Positions 13,258 through 32,000 of a DNA stretch of 32,000 nt are shown here, one piece after another. The DNA is taken from assembly GCA_934613415.1 (NCBI GenBank), contig CAKTSY010000002.1, positions 406,709 through 438,708 on the forward strand, in the 5' to 3' direction. Origin of the DNA: an uncultured Opitutales bacterium (GTDB lineage: Bacteria > Verrucomicrobiota > Verrucomicrobiia > Opitutales > Intestinicryptomonadaceae). Under the pieces are notes generated by a model. It did no database searches and had not been told where the DNA came from. It worked only from the letters and a program-made list of their open reading frames with translations. Both the position numbers and the translations under genes were made by a program. Each line of letters begins with the position of its first letter. Positions within the stretch are counted from its first letter, which is position 1.

Positions 13258-13926
13258 ATGAAAGCTATAATGTTTGCCTTGTCTTTTCTTGTGTATTTTT
13301 CGCTAAATGCCGCGCAATTTTTGGGGCAAAAGGGTGGCGAGTTTGAATTTTGCGAAACTTTAGAAATTGCCTATCCCGAAAATATGCCAGATTCCGAAAA
13401 GCCCGAATTTGCAAAAAAAGCCATAGCCCAAATAAATTCGCCTATTGTAAGGCAGCTTATTGTTTGGGCGGAAGGCGTAAAATGCGAAAGTTCAAAAAAT
13501 TTCACAAAAGATTACGGCAACTTGTCTGCCTGCGATATAATCGAAAAAAACTTTTCAATTTGCGTAGATAAAAAATTGCAAATCGCCACAGTGATTTTTC
13601 GCCACAAAAATAAGAACACCGCAAGTTTTATATGTTTTGACTTGGCAAGGGCTGCTGCTTTTCACTCAAAAAACGCATCTAACGAATGCCTAACAGCCCA
13701 GCTAGAGCTTACAAAAAAAGCCTACAAGCTTTTGGCAGAGCGCAAAAAACTTTTTAGCGAATTTAAACAGGCAAAGGCCGAAAACAATGCGCAAAAGGTT
13801 GCCGAGCTAGAAAAGAAATTGCGCCAAGAACCATTCTCGCGCGAAAAAACAAAACAAATAAAAGAACAATTTAAGACGTTTAAAAATGCGCCGCAATTTT
13901 GGCTGCTGCAAAATGCAAAGCCCTAG
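13258..13926 (+). CDS. Hypothetical secreted protein with a Lys/Glu-rich helical C-terminus
   Basis: Signal peptide MKAIMFALSFLVYFSLNAA. No family recognised. Its stop codon overlaps the stop of the convergent integrase fragment. Confidence 0.5.
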   Translation: MKAIMFALSFLVYFSLNAAQFLGQKGGEFEFCETLEIAYPENMPDSEKPEFAKKAIAQINSPIVRQLIVWAEGVKCESSKNFTKDYGNLSACDIIEKNFSICVDKKLQIATVIFRHKNKNTASFICFDLARAAAFHSKNASNECLTAQLELTKKAYKLLAERKKLFSEFKQAKAENNAQKVAELEKKLRQEPFSREKTKQIKEQFKTFKNAPQFWLLQNAKP

Positions 13927-14235
13927 TTAAAAAACTTTTCGGACTCAAAGCGCGAAATGTTGCGCATGTTAATGTAGCGACTGCATAAAAGCATTTGGTT
14001 GCTGTGCCCCATGTTTAGCTGTAGCCTTGGCAGGTCTTTAAAACGTTTGGCAAAAAAGCTGGCGTAGGTGTGGCGCAAAACGTCGGCCTGCCACGGCAAC
14101 GCTTTGCGGCTAAAACCGCTGTTTTGCCTTATGTTCTGCCAACGGCGTTCCCAGTTTTTCGGGCATATTTTGCCAAAACCTGTGCCACGCGTAAAAATCA
14201 CCCGCAAACCCTTTGTTTATCCCGTAATCTTCCAT
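13923..14235 (-). pseudogene. Tyrosine recombinase (phage integrase family), C-terminal fragment only
   Basis: ORF 13923-14207 reads ...CPKNWERRWQNIRQNSGF...WQADVLRHTYASFF...LNMGHSNQMLLCSRYINM, i.e. the catalytic box II region (LRHT / GHS / Y) only. A second frame, starting at an SD-preceded ATG at 14235-14233, overlaps it (MEDYGINKGFAGDFYAWHRFWQNMPEK...). About two thirds of a normal integrase is missing. Confidence 0.7.
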
Positions 14236-14341: not shown

Positions 14342-14539
14342 AAAACGCGGAGAGAGAGAGGGAATACACTGAAATTCACAAGTCGTTTATTACCAGCAAG
14401 CAAATTTTAACGGCAAGCGTCAGTTGCATTTAGTTGTTTCATTCTTATTTAAGTAATTGTTTAATGTAGTAAAAAAGAGTCTATAACTTGACGTTCAAAA
14501 AAAATCTGCTATTTTTGAGATTGCGATAAAGAAAGAGAG

Positions 14540-15493
14540 ATGGCATCTAAAGACCTAAATTTTCAGATAGAATTTTGCGCTGATTCAAAAGGATATTTTG
14601 ATAGAAAATGCCCTAAATGTGGATTGATTTTCGGAATAAAGTTAGCGGATTACAAATTACATAAAGGCAATATATTTTGCCCAATGTGTGGTTATTCGGA
14701 ATCTTACAATAATAAAATATGGTTTACAGATAGACAAATATCTGAGATGAATGATCGAATTCGCAAACAAGCTACAGAATGGATTCACGATCGATTTAAT
14801 GCTATTTTTAACAAATATCGGCATAATAGGAACGATATTATCAGTATATCGTATAAGCCAGAAAGACGTCCTATATTTAAAAATTATCCAATTTTACAAC
14901 CCAAAGAGTGGGATATAGAGATAAAATGTCAAAAATGCGGAAAGTCCTATAGTGTTATTGGGTCTGCTTTTTTCTGTCCGTTTTGTGGAGAAAACAATAT
15001 AGAAGATATCTTTGAAAAGTCACTTATTGTAATTCGCCATAAGTTAAATTTTGAAAAAATATTTTATCATGACCTAAATAATATGACAGGAAATGTCGCA
15101 ATTGATTTTTCCAGATCTATTTTGGAACATTGTATATCTGAAGTCGTTTCATGTTTTCAGAAATTTGCTGAAACAATATTAAAAAACTTCACTCAAGATC
15201 CTATACGTGTAAACGATTTTCAAATTATAAGAAGAGGGAATGAATTGTATGATAAATATACTGGGCATTCATATTTAGATTATATTTCCAAAGAAGAATT
15301 ACAATTTCTGGAGATTATGTTTAAACGTAGACACCTATTGGAACATAATATGGGAATTGTTGACGAAAAATATATGAATGGAGTCAATGATTTTTCGGTT
15401 AAAGTAGGGCAAAGACTTATTGTAAACAAACAAGAAGTATCAAGATTTATTGATATTATAGAAAAACTTGGATTGGGATTAAAAACTATATGA
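14540..15493 (+). CDS. Uncharacterised protein: two CxxC...CxxC zinc ribbons plus a helical C-terminal domain with an Rx4H (HEPN-like) motif
   Basis: 317 aa. Cysteines C24/C27/C47/C50 (CPKC...CPMC) and C130/C133/C146/C149 (CQKC...CPFC). The C-terminal ~165 aa are predicted helical, with FKRRHLLEHNMGIVDEKY (R264-x4-H269). A possible sigma70-like promoter is TTGACG (14488-14493), a 16-nt spacer, then TATTTT (14510-14515). Confidence 0.6.
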   Translation: MASKDLNFQIEFCADSKGYFDRKCPKCGLIFGIKLADYKLHKGNIFCPMCGYSESYNNKIWFTDRQISEMNDRIRKQATEWIHDRFNAIFNKYRHNRNDIISISYKPERRPIFKNYPILQPKEWDIEIKCQKCGKSYSVIGSAFFCPFCGENNIEDIFEKSLIVIRHKLNFEKIFYHDLNNMTGNVAIDFSRSILEHCISEVVSCFQKFAETILKNFTQDPIRVNDFQIIRRGNELYDKYTGHSYLDYISKEELQFLEIMFKRRHLLEHNMGIVDEKYMNGVNDFSVKVGQRLIVNKQEVSRFIDIIEKLGLGLKTI

Positions 15494-15620
15494 AGAGCAT
15501 ATAGCCAACTTTTTTACAAGTATAATTCCAGTCAATTTTATTAAAATAAAGAGAAGACTTGAAATATATCTTGTAAAGTTCTAATCTATTTAGGTTATGT
15601 AATATTGAAGGAGTTTGAGT

Positions 15621-16452
15621 ATGGCAAAAAAAGAACCAGTCGAATAGGTTAACATCACAACAAAAAGAAAATAAGGGTGTTATCGGTATTTTTGGAGATG
15701 AAGCAAAATCTCATGATAACTTAGTCAGTAGTGTATCAAGAATAGCCTTAAATAAGCTACAGAAGAAATATCCTACACTTTCTTTCCGCTACAGAACAAG
15801 CGTAAGTAAGTTGGAAATAAACAAAGCTTTACAAGAACTTGATAAGGATTTAGGGGGAACTTTGTTTGTACCAGATTCAAATATAAAACCCGACGGTGGA
15901 TTGATAGAAGTAAAAGACGATAATGGGTGTTGGCGAGTAGTTCTTGTTTCAGAGGCCAAACATCAAGGAAAAGATATAGAGAACATACAAAAAGGTATAA
16001 AAGTAGGGGTAAAAGATAACCAAGATTTTATGGTCGCAGGAAACGCGATAGAGCGTTCCCATAAGAATATATCTGAAATTGCTAATCTCATGCTTAAAGA
16101 AGCATATTTCCCTTATGTTCTCTTTTTGGAAGGTTCTAATTTTCTCACCGAAAATATTACCGTGAAAAGGCCAAATGGCGAAGAGTTGAAGATTATCTAT
16201 AATACAGGTTCTCTAAATAGATTAGATAGGCTCACATCCGCAAATTATGGAATGCCAATAAATAAGAATCTATGTAAAAACAAATTTGTAATATCAAATA
16301 ATCAAACTATTATGTTGCAAGCAGCTTCAATTTATACCGAAGGTAAAGGTGGACATTGGAATGAATCTAAAATGCTTCCAATTATGCTGGAAATAGCGGA
16401 AACTTCAATTAAGATGTTAGCCTCCGAATTGTTTAAACAACTCACAAAATAA
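15621..16452 (+). CDS. EcoRI/RsrI-family Type IIP restriction endonuclease; start codon out of frame with the body at an A7 run (as assembled)
   Basis: The body reads KPDGGLIEVKDDNGCWRVVLVSEAKHQGKD...MVAGNAIERSHKNISEIANLMLKEAYFPYVLFLEGSNFLTENI...LNRLDRLTSANYGMPINKNLC...IMLQAASIYT. It is colinear with R.EcoRI, including the PD...EAK motif and the AGNAIERSHKN recognition segment. Homology continues upstream of the ORF-track start, to codon 15622 (..QKKNQSNRLTSQQKENKGVIGIFGDEAKSH..YPTLSFRYR..). The ATG at 15621 has a GAAGGAG SD (15607-15613) but is one frame off. Confidence 0.85.
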
Positions 16453-16454
16453 AT

Positions 16455-17404
16455 ATGGCTATTCACAACAAGTCGCACAGTAATTCTGGTTTAATGGCAA
16501 TAAACCGAATGAATAAGAATAATATTAAGCATAAGTCTAGTGTTGATTTTAAATCTCCAGACCATACGAATTGTATTCTTCTCAACAAAGATTGTTTGGA
16601 ACTTCTAAGAACATTACCTAATGATTCTGTTCAATTGATATTGATTGACCCACCATATAATTTAGATTTGGCCGATTGGGATACTTATGACAACTATATG
16701 GAGTGGGCGTCGAAATGGATAAATGAATCTTATCGAGTTTTGTCAAAAAATGGAAGTATGGTTATTTTTGGAGGAACACAATTCCAAGATGATCGTAGAG
16801 GAGACTTAATTGAAATCATTTATTATTGTAGACATCATACGAAATGGCGTCTTGTAAATACGATTATTTGGTATTATAAAAATGGAATGTCCGCTCATAG
16901 ATATTTTGCAAATCGCCATGAAGAAATTGTTTGGTTCACAAAAACAGATAAGTATTACTTTGATTTAGATGCTGTTCGTCTAAAATATTCACCAAAAGAT
17001 TTGGAACTTGCATTGAAAGATAAACGATTAATCCCTGAAAATGTTATGAAGGGTAAGAATCCTACAAACGTATGGGAAATAGGGCGACTGAATGGTAATT
17101 CATTAGAACGAGTCGGCCATCCGACCCAAAAACCACTGGAGGTTATTAGAAGATTAATCAAAGCATTATCTTATCCCGATTCTGTTGTGTTAGATTTTTT
17201 TCAGGTAGCGGTACAACTGGTCGCGTATGTATCGAGGAAAAGCGAAACTGTATTATGTGTGATACCGATCCAGAATCTCAAAAATATTTTTGTAAACATA
17301 TTGAAAATATGAAAAAAACAAGTTTAGCAAATCCTTTTATTAGGGTAAATAATCTTGATGATTTCTTTTCTGATATAAAGAAACGTCAAGATTTTTATAA
17401 ATGA
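16455..17404 (+). CDS. Beta-class N6-adenine (or N4-cytosine) DNA methyltransferase, M.RsrI-like; frameshifted at a T7 run just before the SAM-binding motif (as assembled)
   Basis: SVQLILIDPPYNL (motif IV) comes first, then NRHEEIVWFTK and LERVGHPTQKP. At T7 (17195-17201) the ORF reads VLDFFQVAV... and stops at 17312. One extra T gives VLDFFSGSGTTGRVCIEEKRNCIMCDTDPES... (motif I FxGxG), ending at TGA 17402-17404. It starts 2 nt after the endonuclease stop. Confidence 0.85.
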
Positions 17405-17542
17405 TTAAATATGTTTTTAAAAGCATCGCCACTTTAAAATGTCCGAGACACTGTTGCAGGGCAGTTGCTGTTTTCGTGCCATTTGGTTTTATGTTGAACC
17501 CTGTTTTGCATATACTTATATTTTTGCGCGGGCGGATACAAG

Positions 17543-17580
17543 AAAAGGCAGATTCGCAACTTAGTGCAAATCTGCCTTTT
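17543..17580. terminator. Bidirectional terminator-like hairpin
   Basis: 12-bp perfect stem AAAAGGCAGATT (17543-17554) / AATCTGCCTTTT (17569-17580) with a 14-nt loop. The A and T runs form part of the stem ends. Confidence 0.6.
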
Positions 17581-17620
17581 ACGCTTAAAAACTGGCGGAG
17601 AGAACATTTGGCATAACACG

Positions 17621-17870
17621 CGTAGGTGTGATGAGTTGTGGGTGTTGGCGGATGGGTTGAAATGGAGTTGGCGTAAAAGCGTCTATCTTGCGAAAAATTT
17701 TGGGTCAAAAATTATGGTTGGTGTGATTTAACGCTTGGTGTTAAAATTCTCGGTCGGTTGTGGTAGATTGGGTAAATTTGGTGGAAGCAAGCCGTTCTGT
17801 TGTCTGCTTGGGAACGCGGGAGTAGTTATTCAGATTTGATTCGGTTGTTGGTGTTGAAGATACTTTGACG
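17621..17870 (+). other. About 250-nt non-coding stretch with extreme G+T skew on the plus strand (C/A-rich and G-poor on the minus strand)
   Basis: Read directly: cytosines are rare on the plus strand. GGTGTK-type words recur: GGTGTGAT at about 17625 and 17720, TTGGTGTT at about 17735 and 17848, GGTGTTGG at about 17641. Confidence 0.5.
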
Positions 17871-17934: not shown

Positions 17935-18024
17935 AACTACCCCCCTTTTTTTCTCTCCATCTCTGGATAAAATCTCGTTCAACGTAAAATTCCATTTTCA
18001 TCAAATGATTGGGGGGGGGTAGTT
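17935..18024. repeat. Inverted repeat AACTA-C6 / G6-TAGTT, with the right arm embedded in a G9 homopolymer
   Basis: AACTACCCCCC (17935-17945) is followed by T7. The G9 run is at 18011-18019 and is followed by TAGTT (to 18024). The arms are about 68 nt apart. The repeat lies about 300 nt upstream of the serine recombinase start. Confidence 0.6.
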
Positions 18025-18319: not shown

Positions 18320-20269
18320 ATGGAAAATAAAAAAGTCCGCGCTGTCGGATACGCCAGAGTAAGCACGAAAAACCAGCTAGTCGGCAGGGAATTTAACAGC
18401 ATTGACACGCAAAAGGCGATTATCGTCTACTATGCCCAAACCCATTCCGAAATCGAGCTTGTGCAAATATTCAGCGATCCTGGGCGGTCGGGTAAAAATA
18501 TGAAACGCCCCGGAATGCAGGCGATGATTGAACGCATCAAACAGGGCGATATTGATTGCGTTCTGGCATACAAGCTTGACCGCGTCAGCCGCGACGGCTT
18601 GGACTACCTAACACTTGAAAGCGAACTCAGGGGGTTGAACGTCTCTATTATATATACGAACGATGCCAATCCCGACGACACCCCGATGGGGCACATTCAA
18701 CGCCATATGATGGTAGGCTTTGCTCAATTTGAGCGGGAACAGAACGCCCAACGCGTGTGCGACAAGCATCTGGAACTTTTGAAACAAGGATATCACGCGG
18801 GCGGCTATCCTCCGCTGGGGTATAACTGCGGAGAGAAAAAGTGCACGCTTGTAATCGACCCACCAGCGGCGGCTCACGTCCACGAAATGTTCGCCTTGTG
18901 TGTGAAAGGTAAAACACCTGCCGAAATCGCCGCCATTATGCTGAAAAAATACGGAACAGTTCCCGAACACAAAACGCGAAACGGCAGAATCTACGGCGGG
19001 AACAGATATTGCGAAAACTTCGTTCGTAGGGTTTTGACAAATCCCGTCTACGCGGGCTACGTAAGCCGAAAGAAAACCGAACTTTTCGAGGGACTCCACG
19101 AAGCCATCATAAGCAGAGCGGATTGGGAGACCGCCTGCAAAGTGTTGGCTCCGAAACCACAAAAGTTGCGACCGCAAATTATGGCGTGTAATTCGCACAT
19201 TCTGAAAGGCAAACTGTTTTGCGGATGCGGGGCGGCGATGACCTGCGGCGCGTCGGGCAAGCGGCACAAAGACGGCAGCCTTTACCATTACTACATTTGC
19301 TCCGCAAAAAATCGGGAGCGAACCGCCCGAATGTGCAAAACGGGCATTGCCAAAAGCGTGTTGGAGTCGGTCGTGTTTTCGGCAATCGGCTACGCGGTAA
19401 CGAGGGGAATTTCGTTGAAGGAGATTCGCGAAAGCTCGCAAAAATACGAGAGCGAACTACTCAAAGAGCAGAAAGAACTTGCCAATTTAAAGCGCGACAA
19501 AGAACGAAAATTGCGCGAAAAGGTAAAGCTTTTTGGTGAAGTTGTGGGGAACGAAGTTCTGCGCAAGATGATGGCTGACGAGCTGCAAAAGCTTTCCGAA
19601 GAGGTTGAAAAACTTGCCGCACGACTCTCCGAAATTGCCAAGGAGACGGAGCTATTCAACCACGATACCGACTTGGGCGATCTTCAAACAAAGGCGGCGC
19701 TTGCCGATATGGATTCCGTCCAAAACGAATTAACTGCGGAGGAGAAAAAGGCGTTGGCACGAGGCGCCATTGAAAAGCTGACGTTAGCAGCGAAGACACA
19801 GAGCAAATACAAGCGCAAATTTTCGCTAAAAATCGTTCCAACGCGGGAATACCTGCCCCAACTTGGGGTTCTTGACATCGACTTTGAGGTAGATACTGCA
19901 AAAGGCCGCAGCGACTGGAAGATTGTCGCTCCGTTTGAAATCGCTTCCGAAAACTACGAGCAAAACCACAAGCCGCGCGAATATAAGCCGCAAAAACGGC
20001 ATTGGCTGCATACGGTTTTTGCTTGGCAGGCTAAGATTGAAAGAGGCGCAACAATGGCGGAAATTGCCGAACTTTCGGGTGTGAGTGTTCCGATGGTTTG
20101 CCGAAAATTGAAGCTTTTGGAACGGCTAAACGCCAAAGTGATTGAGAAAATCCTTTCAAGCAAGCTTGCCGAAACCAACGAGAGATTGTCGTTTAGAACC
20201 ATGGAAATGTTGTCAAAGCTGCCCAAAAGCGGACAGTTGTTGCGGTTTGCTGAGTTAATTCAAAAGTAG
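18320..20269 (+). CDS. Large serine recombinase (phage-integrase type) with an extra C-terminal HTH region
   Basis: AAGGAGG SD 7 nt upstream of the start. N-terminal resolvase catalytic motif VGYARVSTKNQ. Recombinase domain (GYPPLGYNCGEK...). Zinc ribbon (FCGCGAAM...YHYYICSAKNRERTARMC). Long coiled coil (ELLKEQKELANLKRDKERKLREKV...). Then 90 further residues containing ATMAEIAELSGVSVPMVCRKLKLLERLNAKVIEKI. Confidence 0.9.
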   Translation: MENKKVRAVGYARVSTKNQLVGREFNSIDTQKAIIVYYAQTHSEIELVQIFSDPGRSGKNMKRPGMQAMIERIKQGDIDCVLAYKLDRVSRDGLDYLTLESELRGLNVSIIYTNDANPDDTPMGHIQRHMMVGFAQFEREQNAQRVCDKHLELLKQGYHAGGYPPLGYNCGEKKCTLVIDPPAAAHVHEMFALCVKGKTPAEIAAIMLKKYGTVPEHKTRNGRIYGGNRYCENFVRRVLTNPVYAGYVSRKKTELFEGLHEAIISRADWETACKVLAPKPQKLRPQIMACNSHILKGKLFCGCGAAMTCGASGKRHKDGSLYHYYICSAKNRERTARMCKTGIAKSVLESVVFSAIGYAVTRGISLKEIRESSQKYESELLKEQKELANLKRDKERKLREKVKLFGEVVGNEVLRKMMADELQKLSEEVEKLAARLSEIAKETELFNHDTDLGDLQTKAALADMDSVQNELTAEEKKALARGAIEKLTLAAKTQSKYKRKFSLKIVPTREYLPQLGVLDIDFEVDTAKGRSDWKIVAPFEIASENYEQNHKPREYKPQKRHWLHTVFAWQAKIERGATMAEIAELSGVSVPMVCRKLKLLERLNAKVIEKILSSKLAETNERLSFRTMEMLSKLPKSGQLLRFAELIQK

Positions 20270-20442: not shown

Positions 20443-21699
20443 ATGAATATAGCGCGCCCCATATATCTTCAAAAGCTTATCGACCGCAAACAAAACGGAA
20501 TGATTAAGGTTATCACCGGAATGCGACGTTGTGGAAAATCTTTCCTTTTATTCTCCATTTTTCGCGAGCATTTAAAGCAAAGTGGCGTTGACGACGACCA
20601 CATAATAGCCGTTGACCTTGAAGACCGACGGAATAAGGATTTTCGCAATCCCGATACGCTTTTGGATTTCATCGACAAAAAGATGTCTAAAGATGGAGTC
20701 TATTATATATTGATAGACGAAGTCCAGATGGCGGGGGAATTTGAAGACGTTTTAAACAGTCTTTTGAAAAGACCGAATGCCGATGTTTATGTGACGGGCA
20801 GCAATGCGAAATTTCTTTCGAAAGACGTGATTACTGAATTTAGGGGGCGCGGCGACGAAGTGCGTATTCGCCCGTTGTCATTCGCCGAGTTTCGTTCCGC
20901 CAATCCGCAAGCGGACAGAACCGCCGCGCTGACGGAATACATGGCTTACGGCGGCTTGCCGCAAACGGTTTCGATGAAATCGCCGTCGCAGAAAGAAGAC
21001 TACTTGAAAGACTTGTTTTTGCACACCTACCTTGTGGATATAAAGGAGCGATACCGAATCAGAAACGATGAGGACTTGGAGGAATTGGTTCGAGTTGTCG
21101 CGTCGTCAATCGGCGGACTGACGAACACAACCAAGCTGCAAAACACGTTCAATTCGGAAAAGAAAAGTAAGATTTCAAACGCCACGATAAAGAATTATCT
21201 TGATATGTTGCAAGACGCCTTTCTTGTCGAAAAGTCTACACGCTACGACATAAAAGGGCGCAAGTATATCGGCACGCAATCGAAATATTTCTTCGAAGAC
21301 TTGGGTGTCCGCAACGCAGTAATAAACTTTCGACAGTCGGAGGAATCGTACCTAATGGAAAATATGATTTACAACGAATTGCGTATGCGCGGATATTCGG
21401 TCGATGTCGGGCAAGTCACCGTAAATATAAAAGATTCAAGCGGAACAAGCAAACGGAAGTATTTTGAGGTCGATTTTGTCTGCAATTCTGGCTTCAAACG
21501 CTACTACATTCAATCGGCACTGGAATTGTCCACGAAAGATAAAATCGAGCAGGAGTTGCGTTCTCTGCAAAATATAAACGACAGCTTCCAAAAAATGGTG
21601 ATTGTCGGCGGAATTGCTCCGACATACCAAAACGAAAACGGCATTATAATTATGAACGTTTTCGATTTTCTTTTGGGCGATTCAAAACTTTTTGGATAA
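20443..21699 (+). CDS. AAA-type ATPase of the AAA_14 / DUF4143 architecture
   Basis: Walker A: ITGMRRCGKSFLL. Walker B: YYILIDEVQ. The C-terminal part is typical of DUF4143-containing ATP-binding proteins (...FFEDLGVRNAV...EVDFV). Confidence 0.8.
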   Translation: MNIARPIYLQKLIDRKQNGMIKVITGMRRCGKSFLLFSIFREHLKQSGVDDDHIIAVDLEDRRNKDFRNPDTLLDFIDKKMSKDGVYYILIDEVQMAGEFEDVLNSLLKRPNADVYVTGSNAKFLSKDVITEFRGRGDEVRIRPLSFAEFRSANPQADRTAALTEYMAYGGLPQTVSMKSPSQKEDYLKDLFLHTYLVDIKERYRIRNDEDLEELVRVVASSIGGLTNTTKLQNTFNSEKKSKISNATIKNYLDMLQDAFLVEKSTRYDIKGRKYIGTQSKYFFEDLGVRNAVINFRQSEESYLMENMIYNELRMRGYSVDVGQVTVNIKDSSGTSKRKYFEVDFVCNSGFKRYYIQSALELSTKDKIEQELRSLQNINDSFQKMVIVGGIAPTYQNENGIIIMNVFDFLLGDSKLFG

Positions 21700-21710
21700 A
21701 TCTCATTGTT

Positions 21711-22589
21711 CTAATAGTTTGTAATTAAGACCTCAATAGATGCGCCTTTATTTAGGTTTTTGGAATGATAATTTGAATTTTTATAATTTGATTTCATATA
21801 ATGAACATTATATGGGCGTTCTGACAGCCAATCTTTTAATATACAATTGCATATTCCCTTGTGTTCAAGAATATTAGACAACGCAAACTTAATATTTGAA
21901 TTGTTCAATGAATCCAATATTCGCAAAAGATTGTATTCTTCTGCTTTGCCCCATCCCGTAAACCCACGTTTCCCATCGTTATATGTTCCAGATGTAATTA
22001 GATACGGCGGATCGCAATATACAAAATCGTTTTTAGACAAAGATGAAAAGTTAAATTCATCAAAATTATTACATGTGAAATAGATATTAGATGAATAAAG
22101 TTTATTTAAAAAAGACTTTAAATTTTTGCTCATTGCAGGATTGAATGAACTTCTTTCTTTGCCAAACGGAGTATTAAATTCATGTTTAGAATTAAATCGA
22201 ATTTGGTGATTAAACGAAAATGCCAAAAGAACAAACAAGTCCAATGGTGACTTTGTTCTGTTGTATTCGGACCTCAAAGCTTTAAACCCTAATTCATTTT
22301 TGTCCGAAAGTTCAAATTCAGAGATACGATTTTTTATATAGTCAAATATAGCTGGGATTTTACTATTTTTAAATTCATTATACAATGCAATTAAAAAAAT
22401 TAAATTATCATTGCATAATATTGTTTTGGCATCTACATTTATCGCCACGTTAGCTCCCCCGACAAATAAATCAACAAAAGTATCGATATTTTTGGGAAAC
22501 AATGGCAGTATTTGGGGTAACAGTTTGTATTTCCCTCCTATATAATTCAAGGGAGATTTTAAATAATCGCTTGCTGGAAATAGAAACAT
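21711..22589 (-). CDS. Dam-family (alpha-class, D12) DNA N6-adenine methyltransferase; orphan
   Basis: SPLNYIGGKYKLLPQI, FVDLFVGGANV (motif I), then FVYCDPPY (motif IV). I prefer the ATG at 22589, which has a GGTGG upstream; the ORF-track GTG at 22601 is an alternative. No endonuclease gene is adjacent. AT-rich (21/60 G+C at 22201-22260). Confidence 0.85.
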   Translation of the reverse strand: MFLFPASDYLKSPLNYIGGKYKLLPQILPLFPKNIDTFVDLFVGGANVAINVDAKTILCNDNLIFLIALYNEFKNSKIPAIFDYIKNRISEFELSDKNELGFKALRSEYNRTKSPLDLFVLLAFSFNHQIRFNSKHEFNTPFGKERSSFNPAMSKNLKSFLNKLYSSNIYFTCNNFDEFNFSSLSKNDFVYCDPPYLITSGTYNDGKRGFTGWGKAEEYNLLRILDSLNNSNIKFALSNILEHKGICNCILKDWLSERPYNVHYMKSNYKNSNYHSKNLNKGASIEVLITNY

Positions 22590-22717
22590 CGAAACACCCA
22601 CCTATTTACATCTATTTACGGTAGAAAAATTCAATAATTTCTCAAGACAAAATTACAAAAAACTATGTCTTTACCAAGGTACCATAACAAAATTCATAAT
22701 TGAAAGGCTTTCTTGAC

Positions 22718-23681: not shown

Positions 23682-25895
23682 TTAACTAACCTTTGTGAAA
23701 ATTAAATCGACCGAGCCGCCGCAGTTGCACGCATACATCGGCGCGACTTCCAGCGAATAGTAGAGTTCGGGAAGTCCGCGCTTGGGGTATATGTAATACG
23801 GCCTGTTGGCGGGAATCGCGGGAAGCTGCTCCTCGCAAACCGTGTCGTCGTTCGTCCTGAGTCGAAAGACGTTTTTCTGGATTTCGTCTTCGGCACTTGA
23901 CGTGTCGGGCAGCTCCGAATCGAAGCGCAGGACAATCTGCGAAAGCTCCAAGCCCGTCGGGAAGCCCTCCGCGTAGAGATACGTCGTGCTCGAAAACGAC
24001 GAAACCGCAATGTGCTTTGTATAACTTCCGTTTCCCTCGAACGGCAGCGACCACCCGTAAAACGCCAAGTCCCTGCTCGACGCGCCGTGGTTCTTCCAAA
24101 ATCCCGAATTCCCCGCGCCGTAGAAAAATCCCTCGAAGCCCTGCAAGCACGAGCAGGTAATCGAATGCAGATAAACCGCGTCGGTCGATTCCTCCTCGAG
24201 CTTGAAGTATGAGTTGTTCCCCTTATACAAATAGAGCTTGAACGCGCCCGACCATTTGAGCGTGAGTATCATTTCCACGGTTTGCCACTCGTCCTTTGGT
24301 AAAATCACGCCCGACTTGTCGATGTTGTCGGTCTTTGAAACTATCGTCCCTGCGCTTGCGGGCGCAATGCTGCCGAGCCTCAGCTGGACTTTCGTGATGT
24401 TCGGGTTTGTCGTCGGCAGGTAAATCGAAAACCTGATTTTGTGGAGCATTCCGTTGCCGCTAAAATACTTTGTGGGAAGCTCGTATTCGTGCGTCGCGTT
24501 GTAGGTGTCGGGCACGAGCGAAATTTTCAGCACATTCTTTTTGCCTCCGATTTCCGCGCCGCCTACGCCCTTCGAATGCGAACTATTGCGCGTAAACGAG
24601 CTTGCGAACGTGCTTCTGAAATAATTATAGCGCGGGTTCAGAATGCCTTTCGGTGGAAAATTGCCGTTTGCGAAATCCTCAATCGAGTAGTTGATTTTCG
24701 CGGTCTTGCCCTCGCTTGCCGTAAGCGGCAACAGGAGCGAATTCGAATACGCCATAACCTGCTTCAAGCCCTTCCAACCCAAGAACGAAGACGCGCCCGT
24801 GATGGAAAGTTCGTCGGGAATTACGCCCGAGGAGACAAGCTCGATGCCCTTGTATAGCTTGAAATTCCTGCCGTCGACGGTTAGCGCGATTCTGTCGCCG
24901 TATTCGATTGCCTTTGAAATCGCCGCCGTCCGATCGACCATTTCCGAACCGCCGCTTTCGCTTTCCTGATAGATGTAGCCGAGCTTCAGCGTATTGCCGT
25001 CTGCGGAAATTTCGGGCGTGAACATTCCGCTGTCTGCGTATGAAACGGCGTAGAGTTGCGTATAATATGCTGTCGGTTCGGGCAAATAAATTGTAAGGAA
25101 TGTCGAGCAATTTCCCGCCACGAAGTCGTCGCCGAGCGTTGCGCCGTATTCCGAGGGGACGGACAATGAAGTGTCAGACCATATTCCGCACTTCATATAC
25201 TTGAACAAGTCGCGCTTTTGCGGAACGTCGAGATTTGTTCGGGCTGCTGTCTTGTCGGCAATGTCGGAAAGATTGGAAGCCTTTTTGAGGTTCTTTGCCT
25301 CCTGCGCGTCGATTTGCGATTTGTTGTAAACTTCGCCTTTTGCGTAGACATCGAGGTTCTTTCTTGAAGCCGACTTGTCCGCCAAGTCCGAAAGGTTGGC
25401 GGATTTTTTCGAGAACACGGTGTCGGTGTAAACTTTGTCGTAGAACTGCTCCTGAAGTTCGACGGCGGGCGCGTTTTCTATGAGGTCGTTTTTTACGCGG
25501 CAGGCGGTCTGCAAAATCGTGACGATTCTGCCCGCCGTGTCGGAATATTCCACCTCCAAGAATGCGGTGATGTATTCGCTTTCCTGAACGGCGTTTTCGA
25601 TTGCCGTTGTGTTTAGCGGCAACACCACTTCCGCACCGCCGTTCGGATTCAAGGCATAGCCTGCCGCATATGTGAGTGATTTGGGATAGCCTTTAAAACG
25701 CGCAATCGCAACTCGCAGAAAATCCGTGCCGACTACAAGCGGCTTTACCTCGTAGAGCGATTCTTCGCCCTTTTGGAGAAGGAAGATTTCGAGCGGCTCG
25801 TTGTCGCCCTGCATAAATACGGGTGCGGACACGCTCCTGTCGGAAGTCAAACTCTGGACAAGCTTCTTGTTCTCAATGTCTATAAAAAGAGTCAT
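23682..25895 (-). CDS. Phage tail fibre / receptor-binding protein
   Basis: Two copies of the tail-fibre motif: SANLSDLADKSASRKNLDV (aa 165-183) and ASNLSDIADKTAARTNLDV (aa 206-224), at DNA 25224-25403. A large beta-rich C-terminal region follows. Confidence 0.7.
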   Translation of the reverse strand: MTLFIDIENKKLVQSLTSDRSVSAPVFMQGDNEPLEIFLLQKGEESLYEVKPLVVGTDFLRVAIARFKGYPKSLTYAAGYALNPNGGAEVVLPLNTTAIENAVQESEYITAFLEVEYSDTAGRIVTILQTACRVKNDLIENAPAVELQEQFYDKVYTDTVFSKKSANLSDLADKSASRKNLDVYAKGEVYNKSQIDAQEAKNLKKASNLSDIADKTAARTNLDVPQKRDLFKYMKCGIWSDTSLSVPSEYGATLGDDFVAGNCSTFLTIYLPEPTAYYTQLYAVSYADSGMFTPEISADGNTLKLGYIYQESESGGSEMVDRTAAISKAIEYGDRIALTVDGRNFKLYKGIELVSSGVIPDELSITGASSFLGWKGLKQVMAYSNSLLLPLTASEGKTAKINYSIEDFANGNFPPKGILNPRYNYFRSTFASSFTRNSSHSKGVGGAEIGGKKNVLKISLVPDTYNATHEYELPTKYFSGNGMLHKIRFSIYLPTTNPNITKVQLRLGSIAPASAGTIVSKTDNIDKSGVILPKDEWQTVEMILTLKWSGAFKLYLYKGNNSYFKLEEESTDAVYLHSITCSCLQGFEGFFYGAGNSGFWKNHGASSRDLAFYGWSLPFEGNGSYTKHIAVSSFSSTTYLYAEGFPTGLELSQIVLRFDSELPDTSSAEDEIQKNVFRLRTNDDTVCEEQLPAIPANRPYYIYPKRGLPELYYSLEVAPMYACNCGGSVDLIFTKVS

Positions 25896-25919
25896 ACAAG
25901 AAGCGGAGTTGTCAAATTA

Positions 25920-26020
25920 TCAGTTGAAAAAGCTTTTCGCTTCCGCGCGGGAAATGCCGCGCATATTGATGTAGCGCGAGCGAAGAAGCCAATAGGTAGT
26001 TAGAATTTGTCCCCGCTTTT
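25920..26020 (-). pseudogene. Short 3' remnant of a second, related tyrosine integrase gene
   Basis: The minus strand reads ...LLRSRYINMRGISRAEAKSFFN-stop (stop at 25922-25920). That is 13 of 18 identical to the C-terminus of the 13923-14207 fragment (RYINMRNISRFESEKFFN). Confidence 0.5.
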
Positions 26021-26028
26021 CTGTGCAC

Positions 26029-26063
26029 AAAAAAAACCGCCTTGCCTTGTGGTTTGGCGGTTT
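26029..26063 (-). terminator. Rho-independent terminator after the PEP-CTERM gene
   Basis: ACCGCC (26036-26041) / GGCGGT (26056-26061). On the minus strand it is followed by T8 (plus-strand A-run 26029-26036). Confidence 0.7.
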
Positions 26064-26082
26064 GAAAATTTAAAATTTTGCC

Positions 26083-27804
26083 TTACTTGCGGCGGCGATA
26101 GATTACAAAGCCCAAAGCCAACGCGCCGAAGATTGCCGCCCATTCGGCGGGTTCTGGGACGACGGTCAGCCAGTATTTGTTTGTCGCCGTGTCGAATGCC
26201 CACGAGAGTTTGGAACTGTCAACGCCCGAAATTTGCATATACGCCAACGCGTCGTCGGCAAGCGAATTGTGTTTGTTGATTGCAAGCGACTTTTCGGCGA
26301 AACCGCTGATTACGATTGTATCGCCGCCAACCAAGCCATAACCGGCGATGTCGGCAACGATGAATTCGTCGAACGTAAGAACCGAGCCGTTGCCGAGGTT
26401 GATTTCAAACTGCGCGGCTTCGCCCGTTGCGAACGCAATACCCCTCGCCGTCAGCGAAACGTTGTCGCCTATCGTAATTTTACCGTAGGAGCTTGAAGGC
26501 TTGTTGTCGTTGTACGACTTCGACACGAGGAACGCCGTCTTCTTCCAAGTGTTGTCGGCGTTGACAACCAGCAAGCCCGCGTTTGTGTCGGTATTTTTGC
26601 CGAACGCAAGGTGCGTGTCGATGTCGAGCGCATCGTTGAGTGTCATCGCATTGCCGAGCGCGAAATATTTGCCGCCCCTGATAACCAATTTGCCGCCTTT
26701 GTCGAGGACGATTTCTTCATAGTTTTTGCCGGCGGCACACGTTGCCGAATCCGTAAAGATGAGGAGAGATGCGCCGTTTTTGATTGTGAAAAGACCGCCG
26801 TTCGCGAACGTTTCGCCGACATTGCTACTATGATTGTAGAGAAGCATGGTGGAGTCCTTCGCGAGAGTGATAGGGGTGGCTATTGAACGGAAGGTTTGCG
26901 CGTTGATGGATGCTCCCTCGCCGATTGTTATCTTTGGCGTAATGCTGTCGTGTTTCGAAACATAAAAGTAGTCGTTTATATTGAGCGTACCGTTAACAAC
27001 CAAGTTGCTTGCCGTTGTTGCATCGCCGTTGTCGGGTGTGAGTTCAAGACGGGAGGTAGTGTACACGGCGTCCTTTCCGATGTTGAGCGTCGAATTTTGT
27101 ACTGTCGTTTCATTGGCGCTGAAGTTGCCGCCAATGTTTGCAACGGTGCCGTTGAACGCGGCGTTTCCCGAAGTCGTATACGTGCCGTTGAAGTTGTTTA
27201 TGCCGTTTGTGAAATAGGACGCGCCTGTAACGTTCATAACGCCGTCGACGGTGAAAACCGTATTCGCGTCATCGCTTTTGACGGTTACCGCTTCCGAACT
27301 CGTAACGGTAATGCCCCTGCCGATTTTAATCGACGCCGTGCTGCCCGAACGCCCCGTGCCTACGGGAGCGGTAAGAGTCCAACCGTTGGTAAAGTTTATC
27401 GCAGCATTTCCGCCGTTTTTAACGGAAAAATCCATCGCAAGCGGATAGGCGCTGAACCCTATTCCGTCGCCACTCGATAACGTCAGTGCCGCTCCGTCTT
27501 CGAAAAGCATATTCAGGTCGGTATAGCTTCCTCCGTCGTCACTTACCATGAAGCTTTTGAATGAATATTTCCCGTCCACAACGGTGTACGCCGGCGCGGT
27601 TGCAACGCCCGAATTGAGACCCTTCCAGAGAACCCCGTCGGAATCCGTCGGCGTTACGACATCACCCGAAGAGTTCTTGATGTCTGAGGAGAACTTCGTT
27701 GCGTTCTCTTCGTTAATGCCGCCCGACAGAAGATAGTCGGTTGCGAACGCCGAACTTGCGGCGAATGCCGCTGCCGATATAATTACAAGACAACTTGTTC
27801 TCAT
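26083..27804 (-). CDS. PEP-CTERM-anchored surface protein with a beta-helix / autotransporter-passenger-like repeat region
   Basis: Signal peptide MRTSCLVIISAAAFAASSAFA. Long Gly/Asn/Thr-rich beta-helical repeats. The C-terminus VVPEPAEWAAIFGALALGFVIYRRRK shows the PEP motif, a TM helix and a basic tail. Confidence 0.85.
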   Translation of the reverse strand: MRTSCLVIISAAAFAASSAFATDYLLSGGINEENATKFSSDIKNSSGDVVTPTDSDGVLWKGLNSGVATAPAYTVVDGKYSFKSFMVSDDGGSYTDLNMLFEDGAALTLSSGDGIGFSAYPLAMDFSVKNGGNAAINFTNGWTLTAPVGTGRSGSTASIKIGRGITVTSSEAVTVKSDDANTVFTVDGVMNVTGASYFTNGINNFNGTYTTSGNAAFNGTVANIGGNFSANETTVQNSTLNIGKDAVYTTSRLELTPDNGDATTASNLVVNGTLNINDYFYVSKHDSITPKITIGEGASINAQTFRSIATPITLAKDSTMLLYNHSSNVGETFANGGLFTIKNGASLLIFTDSATCAAGKNYEEIVLDKGGKLVIRGGKYFALGNAMTLNDALDIDTHLAFGKNTDTNAGLLVVNADNTWKKTAFLVSKSYNDNKPSSSYGKITIGDNVSLTARGIAFATGEAAQFEINLGNGSVLTFDEFIVADIAGYGLVGGDTIVISGFAEKSLAINKHNSLADDALAYMQISGVDSSKLSWAFDTATNKYWLTVVPEPAEWAAIFGALALGFVIYRRRK

Positions 27805-27984
27805 GATACCTACTTTCTATATTTTCAATAACTGGGATATAAAATTATCTGTTTATAAAGCTTTTTACAACTTTTCTGCGGTAAAAAAAGCTTGCAGTCA
27901 ACCATAAAAATTCCAACAGTTTTCAACAGTTCGTTCGGTACGGCAATCACGCTGTGCCGATTGGTTTATATGTTTATGGGGGAA

Positions 27985-28239
27985 ATGGTAAAATTTGTAA
28001 TATACGCGGGTGCGCTGCTTGCAGCCTGTATCCTTTCGGCGGAGGAAAGCGTCGGCGATACAATTTCGGCGAAGTTCGGCAATACGGTTTCGGGGGCGGC
28101 TCAGGCGAATGTATATTTCGAAGGCAACGGCAAATCGGGCGAGCTTTTGTGCATAGGACACTCGCAGACCAAACACGCTCCCGCTCCCGAACCATATGGC
28201 CGTTGCCATTGCGAAAAAGGAATATTGGTTGGGAAATGA
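27985..28239 (+). CDS. Possible small secreted protein (84 aa), divergent from the PEP-CTERM gene
   Basis: Internal start of ORF 27892-28239, with GGGGGAA immediately upstream. Begins MVKFVIYAGALLAACILSAEES (signal-peptide-like). No homology recognised, so it could be a chance ORF. Confidence 0.25.
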   Translation: MVKFVIYAGALLAACILSAEESVGDTISAKFGNTVSGAAQANVYFEGNGKSGELLCIGHSQTKHAPAPEPYGRCHCEKGILVGK

Positions 28240-28405
28240 CGATGATTTTGTAGATATTGACAAGGTGATTTCCAACATACAAAAGTATGAATCATTTCAA
28301 GATTCGGTAATATCCGACAAAACAAAATTATTTCAGACCAAATCAGTCGAAGGTTAAAACAATGAATCGAAAAAAAGCCTTTCGGGATTCCGAAAAGTTT
28401 TTCTT

Positions 28406-29353
28406 TTACCACTTTCTGATGGGGCATTTTTCGGAAGCGAGTTTAAGTTTTGCGGAGGAGCAGCCGCATTTTAGGCATTTGCCGAGTCCCATTCGGGCTG
28501 TGGGATACCAGAACTTGCAGTTATTGCAGATTGATTTTCTTCTTGTTAATTCGGCTTCGGCGGCAAGTTTGAAGCCCGATTTTGCCCAGTTGTAGGTTGC
28601 CTTTGTAAACTTTTGCACCATTTGAAATGTCGTAGGCAAAGTATCCAAAGTTTCCAAAATTGCCGATTTTTCAAACTCCAAATCGGTTCTGGTAAATTTC
28701 GCCGCCTCCGCAATGCGTCTGTCTTCAAAGCCGTTTTCTCCGCGTTCGGCGTAAAAGCATCTGCCGTTAAACAACGCAGCCTTGTAGGCGGGTTTGCCGT
28801 TTACGCAAAGGCTTTGCAACGTCCCCGCAAAGACATTGCAAACGCGCGAAAAAATCCCGCCCGATTTCGTCTGCCCCGAAATCAGCCATTCGTTCGGGTT
28901 GTCTGGATTGTATGAAACGCGGTAGAAATATTCAACATCGGGGAAAGTCAACTTTTGAATACTCCCGCCGTTTACAATGTAAAATCCGCCAGAACGCCCG
29001 CCGTAGACAATACGGTTTTTGAAAACAAACCCGACATCGGCGGAAACAAACTTTTCGGGAACGTTGCCGATTCCGTCAATCTTGTAGAGATAAAAACGCC
29101 TGTCGCTTTCGTGCCCACCCGCGATGAACGAAATTCTCCACCTGCCGTCTACAAGTTCGGCGGTGGGCGAACATTCCGTGGCGTCTTCTGGAAGCCCTGT
29201 ATAAACGCGTTCCCATTCGCCGTTTTCATAGTGGTGAAGCTTCCATTTGCCGCCGACTTTAAGACAGCAAAAAGCCTTCGGCGCATAGTATGGTGCATTA
29301 CCGCGAGCCACAAACGGCATATGCGAATTTATCCCTTTGTCGAATTCAAACAT
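28406..29353 (-). CDS. Hypothetical protein: beta-rich N-terminal domain plus a C-terminal cysteine zinc-ribbon tail
   Basis: The C-terminus ICNNCKFWYPTARMGLGKCLKCGCSSAKLKLASEKCPIRKW follows the pattern CxxC...CxxCGC...CP..KW. Only a 3-nt gap separates it from the upstream gene. Confidence 0.6.
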   Translation of the reverse strand: MFEFDKGINSHMPFVARGNAPYYAPKAFCCLKVGGKWKLHHYENGEWERVYTGLPEDATECSPTAELVDGRWRISFIAGGHESDRRFYLYKIDGIGNVPEKFVSADVGFVFKNRIVYGGRSGGFYIVNGGSIQKLTFPDVEYFYRVSYNPDNPNEWLISGQTKSGGIFSRVCNVFAGTLQSLCVNGKPAYKAALFNGRCFYAERGENGFEDRRIAEAAKFTRTDLEFEKSAILETLDTLPTTFQMVQKFTKATYNWAKSGFKLAAEAELTRRKSICNNCKFWYPTARMGLGKCLKCGCSSAKLKLASEKCPIRKW

Positions 29354-29356
29354 AAA

Positions 29357-29695
29357 TTAACTTTCGGGCCATTTGATGTTGCCGCACCAGAGGTCGTCGC
29401 AACAGACATCGGGGCAGCCCTGTTGAAGCTCCATATAGCCGTCGTAGGTATAGTTGGATTTAAATTGGCTCGGCAATCCCTCAAGTTTACCGTTTTCATC
29501 GATGCGCCCGCGATTGTATTCAACGCAGCCGCTTAACTCATACAAACGCCAAAGCGCGTTGGGCTTGCCGACGCCGTCGCCCTGATACGGGGTCAAGTCC
29601 CACGTCGGGTTGTCGCCGTTTGTGGTATAAGTTGCTATAACGCTCGGCTCGCACTGCGAACAGTCGTCGGAGCATTTGGATTTAAGCTGAATCAT
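29357..29695 (-). CDS. Small Cys-rich hypothetical protein (112 aa)
   Basis: Multiple Cys clusters (CSDDCSQCE...GCVEY...[13 protein letters not shown]). Its start overlaps the stop of the collagen-like gene by 4 nt. Confidence 0.55.
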
Positions 29696-31434
29696 TCTCC
29701 GCCTTCCCCCGACTTCACAAGGAAGTATTTTACGGTGGAAGAACCGCCGTCGCAGACTTCGCAGGGTTCGGAATAGAACGCCGCGCCAAGATTGGTTAGC
29801 GTGTTTTGGTCGGCAAGAATCGTGATTTCCGCGCTTTCGCCGTTGGGCAGAACAAACTGGATATTTGTCGGCTTCCAGCCAGTATCGACCTGCCTTGAAC
29901 CCGTCGAAAACACCTGCGTTTTGCTCATCATATTCGTCGACGGGTCGAAATAGTAAATGTCGGTCATAATGTTGCCGCCGTCGATGTGCTGCAAAACTTT
30001 GAGGGTTGCGAGATTGCCGTTTGCGTCCATCACGGCGATGTTTACGGCGGAATCAATCGTGCGCTTCACATAGTCGACGTTCTGGCGCATACTCGCCATA
30101 ATCGACTCTGCGGAGGACATTCTGCTTTCGATGTTGCCCATTCGCGATTCGAGAGAGGCGACGGCCGAAGCAAGCGCGGAAGTGTCGGCGGAATCTCCCT
30201 TTTCGCCGCGAGGTCCCTGAGGCCCCATCGGACCTTGCGCGCCCATGTCGCCCTTATCCCCTTTATCTCCCTTGTCGCCTTTCGGACCCTGTGGGCCTTG
30301 CGTTCCGCCGCCTCCTCCTGCAGGACCTTGCGGCCCCATAGGCCCCGTATCGCCTTTTTCGCCTTTCTCCCCGCGCTCCCCCTGAATCCCCTGAGGTCCT
30401 TGCGGACCAATCGGGCCTTGGTCTCCTTTTTCGCCCTTGGGAAGATTGTTGATAGCCGCCCACAGCTGCGAAATTTGCGCCTTTATGCTTTCGTCGGAAT
30501 CGGCGAGGGCTTTCAGGGATTCCACAATAGCCTTTATTTGCGATTCGATTTCGTCGACGCGTTTTTCGAGCTGCTGGCGTTTGTATAGTTCGTCGTTTGT
30601 AAGGGTATTTAGTTCGGCGATTAGCGCATTGTGCTCGTCCCACAGGGCTTTTAGGTTCGCAAGTTGATTGCGGATTTCGGTGTCGTCATACACGCCGCTA
30701 TCGACAATCTTTTCGACGATTTTATCCCCAGTTTCTCCTTTCTCGCCTTTTTCGCCGCGGTCTCCTTTGTCCCCCTTATCGCCCTTGTCGCCTTTTTCAC
30801 CCTTTTCGCCGTCCTTGCCGTCTTTCCCGTCTCTACCCGCAGGGCCTGCAATGGGCTGGCTCGGCGTTCTGCCCGCAGGCTGTTGCGGGTGTTCGCCGAC
30901 GTAAAGTGCGTAGAAAGTTTTTGCGTTTTCCTTTTCGCCTATCGAAAATTTTATGCTGTAAAAATCCTTTTCGACCGCGCCGCCGCAGTCATTCAAAATC
31001 TTTTCTGAGAAGACAAGATAGCGCAATCCGTCGGTTTCGTTCCAGATGACATCGCCGCTTTTTGGCGTTTTTTGGAAAGTTTTGAAGGCGTTTTCGATGT
31101 TGGAGCGGATTGCCGCCGAGTCGGGAAACTTGATGTCGGGCAATTCCTCGGTATCTTTTGCAATGTAGACTGCGAGCATCGACTTTTCCATTTCGGAGAA
31201 TTCGTCGCCGAAGGAAATTCGCCACGCCTTGGAATTTTTCGTTATCAGCGTATCGAGTATCGTAAGCGTGGTTCCGCCCGCGCTTCTGTTCATTGTATAG
31301 CCCACGCCGTTTTGCAGGCGCGAGGCTTCAATCATTGCGCAGATGTCGTTTAGCCTCTCCGCCGTTACCTGTTCCAAGAGCGGCAGTCCCGCGCGGAATC
31401 GCGGCAGTTTCTGGTTTCCGATGTCATTTAGCAT
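29692..31434 (-). CDS. Collagen-like (GXY repeat) fibre protein, phage tail-fibre-like
   Basis: 14 uninterrupted GXY triplets at aa 197-238. Coiled coil at aa 239-333. Then 13 + 12 GXY triplets (aa 334-415), split by GGGGGTQ. A globular C-terminal domain follows. Confidence 0.85.
30190..30435 (-). repeat. Collagen-like block 2 (13 + 12 GXY triplets)
   Basis: [82 protein letters not shown]. Confidence 0.85.
30721..30846 (-). repeat. Collagen-like block 1 (14 GXY codon triplets; GDK/GEK 9-nt tandem units)
   Basis: [42 protein letters not shown]. Confidence 0.85.
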
Positions 31435-31436
31435 TT

Positions 31437-32000
31437 TTATTTGTATATGTATTTATTCCAACCGTTCGGGCCGCTCAAAAGGTAGGTGATGGAAACTTTG
31501 TATTTGCCGTCCGCCATTTTGTTGTAGGAAATTCCCGTGCACATCCACTGGCGGTTTCCGTCGACTGCTGGCAAGCCGCTGCCGCCGCCGATTGAACCTA
31601 TTCCCCCGAGGCTCGGAATTCCCCTTGAAATGTAGCCTACCGTCGCCGAATACGACGGCACGAGGTAGCTTTTAACACCCGCCATTATTTTCCCACCCTG
31701 AGTTTTGGAATTCCAGCCGACGAATTTGCCGTCGTCGTCGAATATTCCGCAGTTGGGCTTGTCGGGGCTTCCCGCCCATCGCTCGAAATCGGGGTGGCTT
31801 TCAATCGGCTCTTCGCGCATTGTGCAGGAAACTTCGACTGTGTTTTCGGAGGAATCTTTGTCCGAATCCCAGACGAATTCAGAACCCTCGTATTGGGCGG
31901 TTATTATCGCGCCTTCGCCGTGCCGCTTAATGCCTACCGACTTGCAATACAAATCCGACCAAATCGGGTGCGGAGACTTGTTTACAATCGGGCAATGCGC
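31437..32000 (-). CDS. Hypothetical phage-like structural protein, 5' end beyond the window
   Basis: The ORF-track start (TTG at 31952) is probably not the true start. The frame stays open to position 32000 (..[23 protein letters not shown]..). A 2-nt gap separates it from the collagen-like gene. Confidence 0.55.

Follow-up and report, generated by a model that had tools for sequence, protein, structure and literature searches.

The stretch of DNA analysed here (32,000 nucleotides, hereafter the window) carries a Type II restriction-modification (R-M) pair of the EcoRI and RsrI kind in which the endonuclease gene (R) and the methyltransferase gene (M) are both thrown out of frame at a run of seven identical bases. 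Is such a pair a reversible switch that happens to be off, a system that has recently been inactivated, or an error of the assembly? The initial annotation set these three readings side by side. Judging from sequence comparison, we propose that a horizontally acquired EcoRI-family/M.RsrI-family operon was most probably inactivated through slippage, by one base in each gene, and that both mutations are now fixed in the lineage, a reading to which we assign a probability of about 0.86. The features on which the argument turns are collected in Table 1.

Table 1. Coordinates of the R-M pair and its neighbours in the window.
Feature	Position	Strand	Remarks
Tyrosine integrase, C-terminal fragment	13923-14207	-	
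317-aa zinc-ribbon protein	14540-15493	+	Matches PADLOC candidate PDC-M14A; directly upstream of the R-M pair
SD-like GAAGGAG	15607-15613	+	7 nt 5′ of the R start codon, as seen in the sequence itself
Residual start of the R gene	15621-15647	+	ATG at 15621, reads MAKKEPVE, TAG stop at 15645-15647
A7 run in R	15626-15632	+	+1A frameshift; A6 in the closest intact allele
EcoRI-family frame, body of R	15634-16452	+	+1 relative to the ATG; catalytic and recognition residues present
M 5′ part, M.RsrI-like beta-class N6-adenine methyltransferase	16455-17312	+	Carries DPPY and the target-recognition region
T7 run in M	17195-17201	+	-1T frameshift directly 5′ of motif I (FxGxG); T8 in the closest intact allele
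M 3′ part, -1 frame	17201-17404	+	SGSGTTG... to TGA at 17402-17404; encodes SAM-binding motif I
Large serine recombinase	18320-20269		CcrB/XisF-like
PDC-S01 AAA_14/DUF4143 ATPase	20443-21699		
Dam-family Type II methyltransferase	21711-22601	-	Second patch of about 31% GC

R lacks an uninterrupted reading frame. A7 puts its ATG out of frame, which makes the locus a pseudogene of the EcoRI family, and the homologous frame offers no canonical start before a TTG at 15811, which would give a protein of 213 amino acids, minus the 63 N-terminal residues. Removal of one A (A6) yields a protein of 276 amino acids. This repaired protein aligns with EcoRI gap-free over residues 1–275 at 64% identity (PDB 2oxv, E = 3.7e-115) and scores 430 bits against Pfam PF02963 (cut-off 22), where the match spans positions 2–257 of the 257-position model. 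Read off the ungapped EcoRI alignment, it keeps D91, E111 and K113 of the PD...EAK catalytic motif as well as the recognition residues M137, G140, N141, A142, E144 and R145 of the extended-chain segment M137–R145, and R200 and R203. The sole change among the catalytic and recognition residues checked against EcoRI is A138V. By homology and by these residues, the repaired R is a member of the EcoRI family. Taken by themselves, the conserved recognition residues lead us to infer GAATTC as the specificity of the pair.

The initial annotation had described R as colinear with the EcoRI/RsrI endonucleases, with PD..EAK and the recognition segment in place, and had noted an SD-preceded ATG cut off from the homologous frame by A7. 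Both points hold, the former for EcoRI, since the window R was compared with the EcoRI sequence only. The two endonucleases are themselves homologues, R.RsrI being about 50% identical to EcoRI (PMC4081073). Compared with R.EcoRI (Type IIP, G^AATTC; PDB 1ERI/1CKQ/2OXV), the window R differs in being frameshifted after codon 3 by the extra A, so that the full-length protein is not encoded, and in having Val for Ala138. In the window's clade this codon (window 16032–16034) reads Val (FMVAGNAIERS); it corresponds to Ala138 of EcoRI, a residue of the extended-chain recognition motif. The structure 2oxv is itself an EcoRI variant with Thr at position 138.

The methyltransferase gene starts 2 nt past the R stop codon. 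As found, it encodes 285 amino acids, the last 36 of which are nonsense that follows the frameshift. The shift falls within DFF, at its second Phe codon (residue 249), and leaves SGSGTT, and with it the SAM-binding motif I, out of frame. Adding one T (T8) gives VLDFFSGSGTTG and a protein of 316 amino acids that ends at 17404. The repaired M matches M.RsrI (PDB 1eg2) with E = 1.1e-99 over residues 5–288 and Pfam PF01555 at 200 bits. Its DPPY lies at residues 65–68 and its DFFSGSGTT at 247–255, the beta-class order, and both homology and the succession of motif IV, target-recognition domain and motif I identify it as M.RsrI-like. This agrees with the earlier description of a beta-class gene 2 nt downstream of R with DPPY before the SAM motif, as in M.RsrI. 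A terminator-like hairpin (17543–17580, + strand; 16-nt arms, 94% complementary, then TTTT) lies 3′ of the pair.

The pair resembles the RsrI system of Cereibacter (Rhodobacter) sphaeroides in combining an EcoRI-family endonuclease with a beta-class methyltransferase (DPPY before FxGxG; M.RsrI PDB 1EG2). It differs from that system in the frameshift before motif I of M and in origin: the GC content of the module is about 30%, and the intact relatives closest to it are found in Bacteroidales MAGs from rumen and gut, not in Alphaproteobacteria. It differs from the EcoRI system in that its methyltransferase is not M.EcoRI-like.

The direction of the two changes can be read from the closest intact relative, an allele found on three contigs (L012, L013 and L014) that is 95.5% identical at the nucleotide level, with exactly two gaps over the 1785-nt R and M pair. 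The R tract is A6 in L012 and L014 (ATGGCAAAAAAGAAC), the M tract is T8 in L012 (GATTTTTTTTCAGG), and the three contigs encode intact proteins of 276 and 316 amino acids (P0001, P0123). The allele of the window is thus a derived +1A/-1T double mutant. The sister allele, which comes from gut metagenomes, has the same gene order, the same 2-nt spacing between R and M and homopolymers at the same codons as the window; it differs in its A6 and T8 tracts, its intact proteins and its neighbourhood (SDH_protease, DUF2339). The lengths that A6 and T8 had been predicted to restore, 276 amino acids for R and 316 amino acids ending at 17404 for M, are confirmed both by the single-base repairs and by this intact relative.

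More distantly related intact genes also specify MAKKNQSN and LDFF(S/A)GSG, through runs that are broken up, for example GCGAAGAAAAAT, GCCAAGAAG and GATTTCTTTTCT. This result indicates that the homopolymers are incidental by-products of AT-rich codon choice (KK, DFF(S)) and not conserved contingency tracts. One intact R relative, L018, has an in-frame A9 (CAACAAAAAAAAAGT; about 1515–1530 of that locus) where L012 has AAAAAGAAA, which shows that members of this family can acquire longer A runs and tolerate them when the frame is kept.

If the two frameshifts are set aside, the R and M frames are free of premature stops. Between the window and L012, dN/dS is 0.225 for R and 0.085 for M (0.09–0.15 within the family), at a dS of about 0.1–0.18. 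The low dN/dS and the otherwise stop-free frames make the inactivation recent relative to this dS. Together with the occurrence of A7 and T7 in all contigs recovered (below), they support the second of the initial readings, that of a recently inactivated system.

In the mechanism that we propose, R would have gained one A (A6 to A7) in codons 3–4, so that translation from its only good start codon ends after 8 residues, and M would have lost one T (T8 to T7) in its DFFS codons, with motif I and the C-terminus no longer read in frame. The cell would then make neither enzyme, host GAATTC sites would presumably be unmethylated, and the dead pair would be carried along as pseudogenes in a low-GC defence/mobile island.

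R was probably lost first, or together with M, because loss of M under an active R is lethal. Polarised against the L012 branch, with L018 and L016 as outgroups, the window branch of R has 16 synonymous and 16 non-synonymous substitutions, which cluster in residues 18–103; the 5′ end of L018 is L012-like. Recombination confounds the assignment to branches, and these counts are accordingly left out of the argument on which gene decayed first. The 32-kb window has 15 GAATTC sites against 13.7 expected under a Markov model, which bears out the earlier remark that the site is not purged (e.g. at 340 and 2710). The lack of avoidance is consistent with an absence of current selection from the enzyme and is weak evidence either way.

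To see how the two tracts behave in other samples, contigs were looked up by the exact truncated M product and, independently, by the product of the neighbouring 317-aa gene; the second route is unbiased as to tract length. The truncated M product is carried by 16 contigs and the neighbour product by 19. At least eight distinct short-read contigs were retrieved from gut metagenomes; they differ in sample and in assembler and comprise Hadza SPAdes nodes, MERR22 scaffolds, MEGAHIT k141 contigs and one Logan contig seen in 4 samples. They are 100% identical over window positions 14401–17800, and two shorter ones are identical across their reach. A7 is present in all eight contigs and T7 in all seven that reach the second site, these being consensus sequences, in which variants present in a minority of a sample do not show.

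When compared with the window over longer spans, contigs outside a group of three (L002, L007 and L009) show 0–3 SNPs. This group has 24 SNPs in 13917–14073 and unrelated sequence left of 13896 (contig positions 1–166, the end of a GNAT-like gene). Given this different left flank, the same A7/T7 allele is found in at least two contexts.

The window contains 43 homopolymer runs of seven bases or more, 20 others of which lie inside intact long ORFs. It had been considered unusual for two such runs to hit both partners. Runs of this length are in fact common, and the part of the argument that stands is that the coincidence of both frameshifts with them is non-random, homopolymers being where slippage indels occur. 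The only G/C homopolymer of at least seven bases in the window is a G9 run at 18011–18019, which is intergenic, some 300 nt 5′ of the gene for the serine recombinase, and equally long in all covering contigs, the alignments being gap-free.

Do the two tracts act as paired slipped-strand switches that turn R and M reversibly ON and OFF, giving a phase-variable Type II system with M as a phasevarion-like epigenetic switch? The position of both lesions in homopolymers, each one step from a functional length, would fit such a switch, as would the low dN/dS and the lack of other damage in the genes. Slippage could in principle reverse either lesion, a switch caught in the OFF/OFF state would look alike, and phase-variable Type II/IIG methyltransferases bearing homopolymers have been documented in Helicobacter pylori (PMC3936762). 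Nonetheless, tract length is invariant in two flank contexts and in at least eight samples that are independent of one another. When about 15 billion public proteins were searched for exact matches, no ON product of R (A6 or A9) or of M (T8 or T5) turned up, compared with OFF products (those of the frameshifted tracts) on 15 contigs for R and on 14+2 for M, and with the product of the neighbouring 317-aa gene on 17. A locus with ON and OFF lengths differing among samples is thus not what the consensus contigs show.

The tracts themselves also argue against a switch. At 7 nt of A or T they fall below the published cut-offs, which are 10 or more for phase-variable A/T tracts (PMC6321876) and >8 bp for H. 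pylori (PMC3936762), and they are not kept in related alleles, intact relatives having synonymous interruptions as in GCGAAGAAAAAT and GATTTCTTTTCT. Moreover, independent switching of R and M would regularly give the lethal state with R ON and M OFF. An R-M gene frameshifted at a homopolymer within its coding sequence is a feature that the locus has in common with the phasevarions of Neisseria, Haemophilus and Moraxella and with the phase-variable Type IIG/III methyltransferases of H. pylori. In those systems, however, the tracts are longer (>8 bp, often poly-G/C) and vary among isolates and within cultures, with ON and OFF alleles both seen (PMC3936762, PMC6321876, PMC12707154), whereas here A7 and T7 are invariant across samples and an ON allele was found in none.

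Pattern scans that tolerated tracts of 4–11 nt between allele-specific flanks returned nothing from JGI metagenome contigs or IMG/VR viral contigs; the window allele is missing from these collections, so the scans are uninformative on tract variation. Overall, the paired switch of the initial annotation goes unsupported and we consider it very unlikely, although it is the alternative that fares best.

Transcripts with A7 and T7 could also be recoded. Low levels of full-length protein would then arise through transcriptional slippage on either run or, for M, through -1 ribosomal frameshifting on U UUU UUU C, leading to ...DFFSGSGTTG... RNA polymerase slippage is known at A and T runs, and the M run in frame forms an X XXY YYZ heptamer (GA-U UUU UUU-CAG) on which a -1 slip restores the M frame. 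R, on the other hand, needs a shift of +1 (or -2) instead of -1; were A AAA AAA to slip by -1, a TAA would follow after 6 codons. Runs of seven bases are also at the low end for productive slippage. A programmed frameshift would pair a slippery site in register with a stimulatory structure and would be conserved. Only the M heptamer is compatible with a -1 shift, neither tract is followed 3′ by a stimulatory structure (fold z-scores of +1.33 and -0.63 relative to shuffled sequences), and the frameshifted arrangement is conserved in no relative, the close relatives being all in frame. Recoding as the explanation of the locus comes next in probability, and at a low level.

We rejected recoding as a designed mechanism, given RNA folds downstream that are no more stable than shuffled ones and an R shift of +1. 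Any read-through at A7 or T7 would be accidental.

A slow, coupled form of switching, in which rare A7-to-A6 and T7-to-T8 revertants or slippage transcripts would provide a small subpopulation with a working GAATTC R-M system, appears more improbable still. If true, an uncultured gut bacterium would have a Type IIP system that is phase-variable at low frequency.

Finally, homopolymer miscalls over a true genome with A6, T8 and an intact ordinary R-M system have a negligible chance: homopolymer indels are a typical error of some sequencing chemistries and both lesions are single-base changes of homopolymer length, but A7 and T7 recur in at least eight contigs from varied samples and assemblers with zero differences over 3.4 kb, the 20 other long runs sit in intact ORFs, and OFF products are found on 14–17 contigs and ON products on none, so that the assembly error once proposed is refuted by the independent contigs and, with the intact ORFs, excluded.

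We return to the preferred reading, the decay of an acquired R-M operon, and its consequences for annotation. The locus is best recorded as a pseudogenised EcoRI/RsrI-type R-M pair; neither "active defence system" nor "phasevarion" would be a fitting label, and host DNA would be expected to be sensitive to EcoRI. It would offer a clean natural example of Type II decay in which both partners were lost via single-base slippage at incidental homopolymers in AT-rich codons (KK, DFFS), the dead module persisting unchanged while the mobile island spreads among human gut samples. For an EcoRI isoschizomer with an M.RsrI-type partner, the intact L012 allele is the one to clone. Beyond annotation the significance is small, this kind of Type II R-M system being well known.

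Decay is also seen elsewhere in the family. In a Prevotellaceae MAG (locus L052, 4380–4440), R has lost one nucleotide of the MVAGNAIE recognition segment (GCAGGAAAC to GCGGAAAC) and the M.RsrI-like gene is intact; this frameshifted R beside an intact M is a case of parallel decay. Other decayed R copies are frameshifted (L050), internally deleted (L053) or truncated (L054).

Across the loci examined (L019–L055), EcoRI-family endonucleases pair with two unrelated types of methyltransferase. Where R is full-length and at least 70% identical to the query, an M.RsrI-like gene follows directly downstream, with the exception of L025 (71%). For copies that are 62–68% identical (e.g. Streptococcus, Flavobacterium psychrophilum and Fibrobacter), an M.RsrI-like gene is absent within the locus, and the partner is presumably of the M.EcoRI type.

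The R-M pair occupies a patch of about 30% GC (14.5–17.4 kb) amid sequence of 43–52% GC. With the recombinase, the ATPase and the Dam-family methyltransferase, the dead pair looks like a defence island on a mobile element. In scans of the low-GC island for tRNAs, Rfam families and repeats, neither an integration-site tRNA nor an RNA family came up, and convincing direct repeats at its flanks were likewise missing. The flanking nucleoside hydrolase has distant homologues in Opitutales and Lentisphaeraceae MAGs (42–46% identity). Together with the weak PEP-CTERM match described below, these homologues may tentatively point to an uncultured gut bacterium of the PVC group as the host.

The 317-aa protein encoded upstream of R has two zinc-ribbon-like CxxC pairs and matches PDC-M14A over its N-terminal half (E = 1.3e-17), with no Pfam family above threshold; its gene is absent from the neighbourhood of the intact L012 allele. 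No obvious endonuclease was identified beside the Dam-family methyltransferase.

Further downstream, a block of about 52% GC (23682–31952, - strand) contains large minus-strand ORFs of 737, 573 and 315 amino acids without a Pfam family. The 573-aa protein (26083–27804) has a weak, sub-threshold PEP-CTERM match at its C-terminus (E = 0.004), and a 580-aa protein of the same block combines collagen triple-helix repeats with a coiled coil. The genes of this block could be cell-surface or prophage tail-fibre-like.
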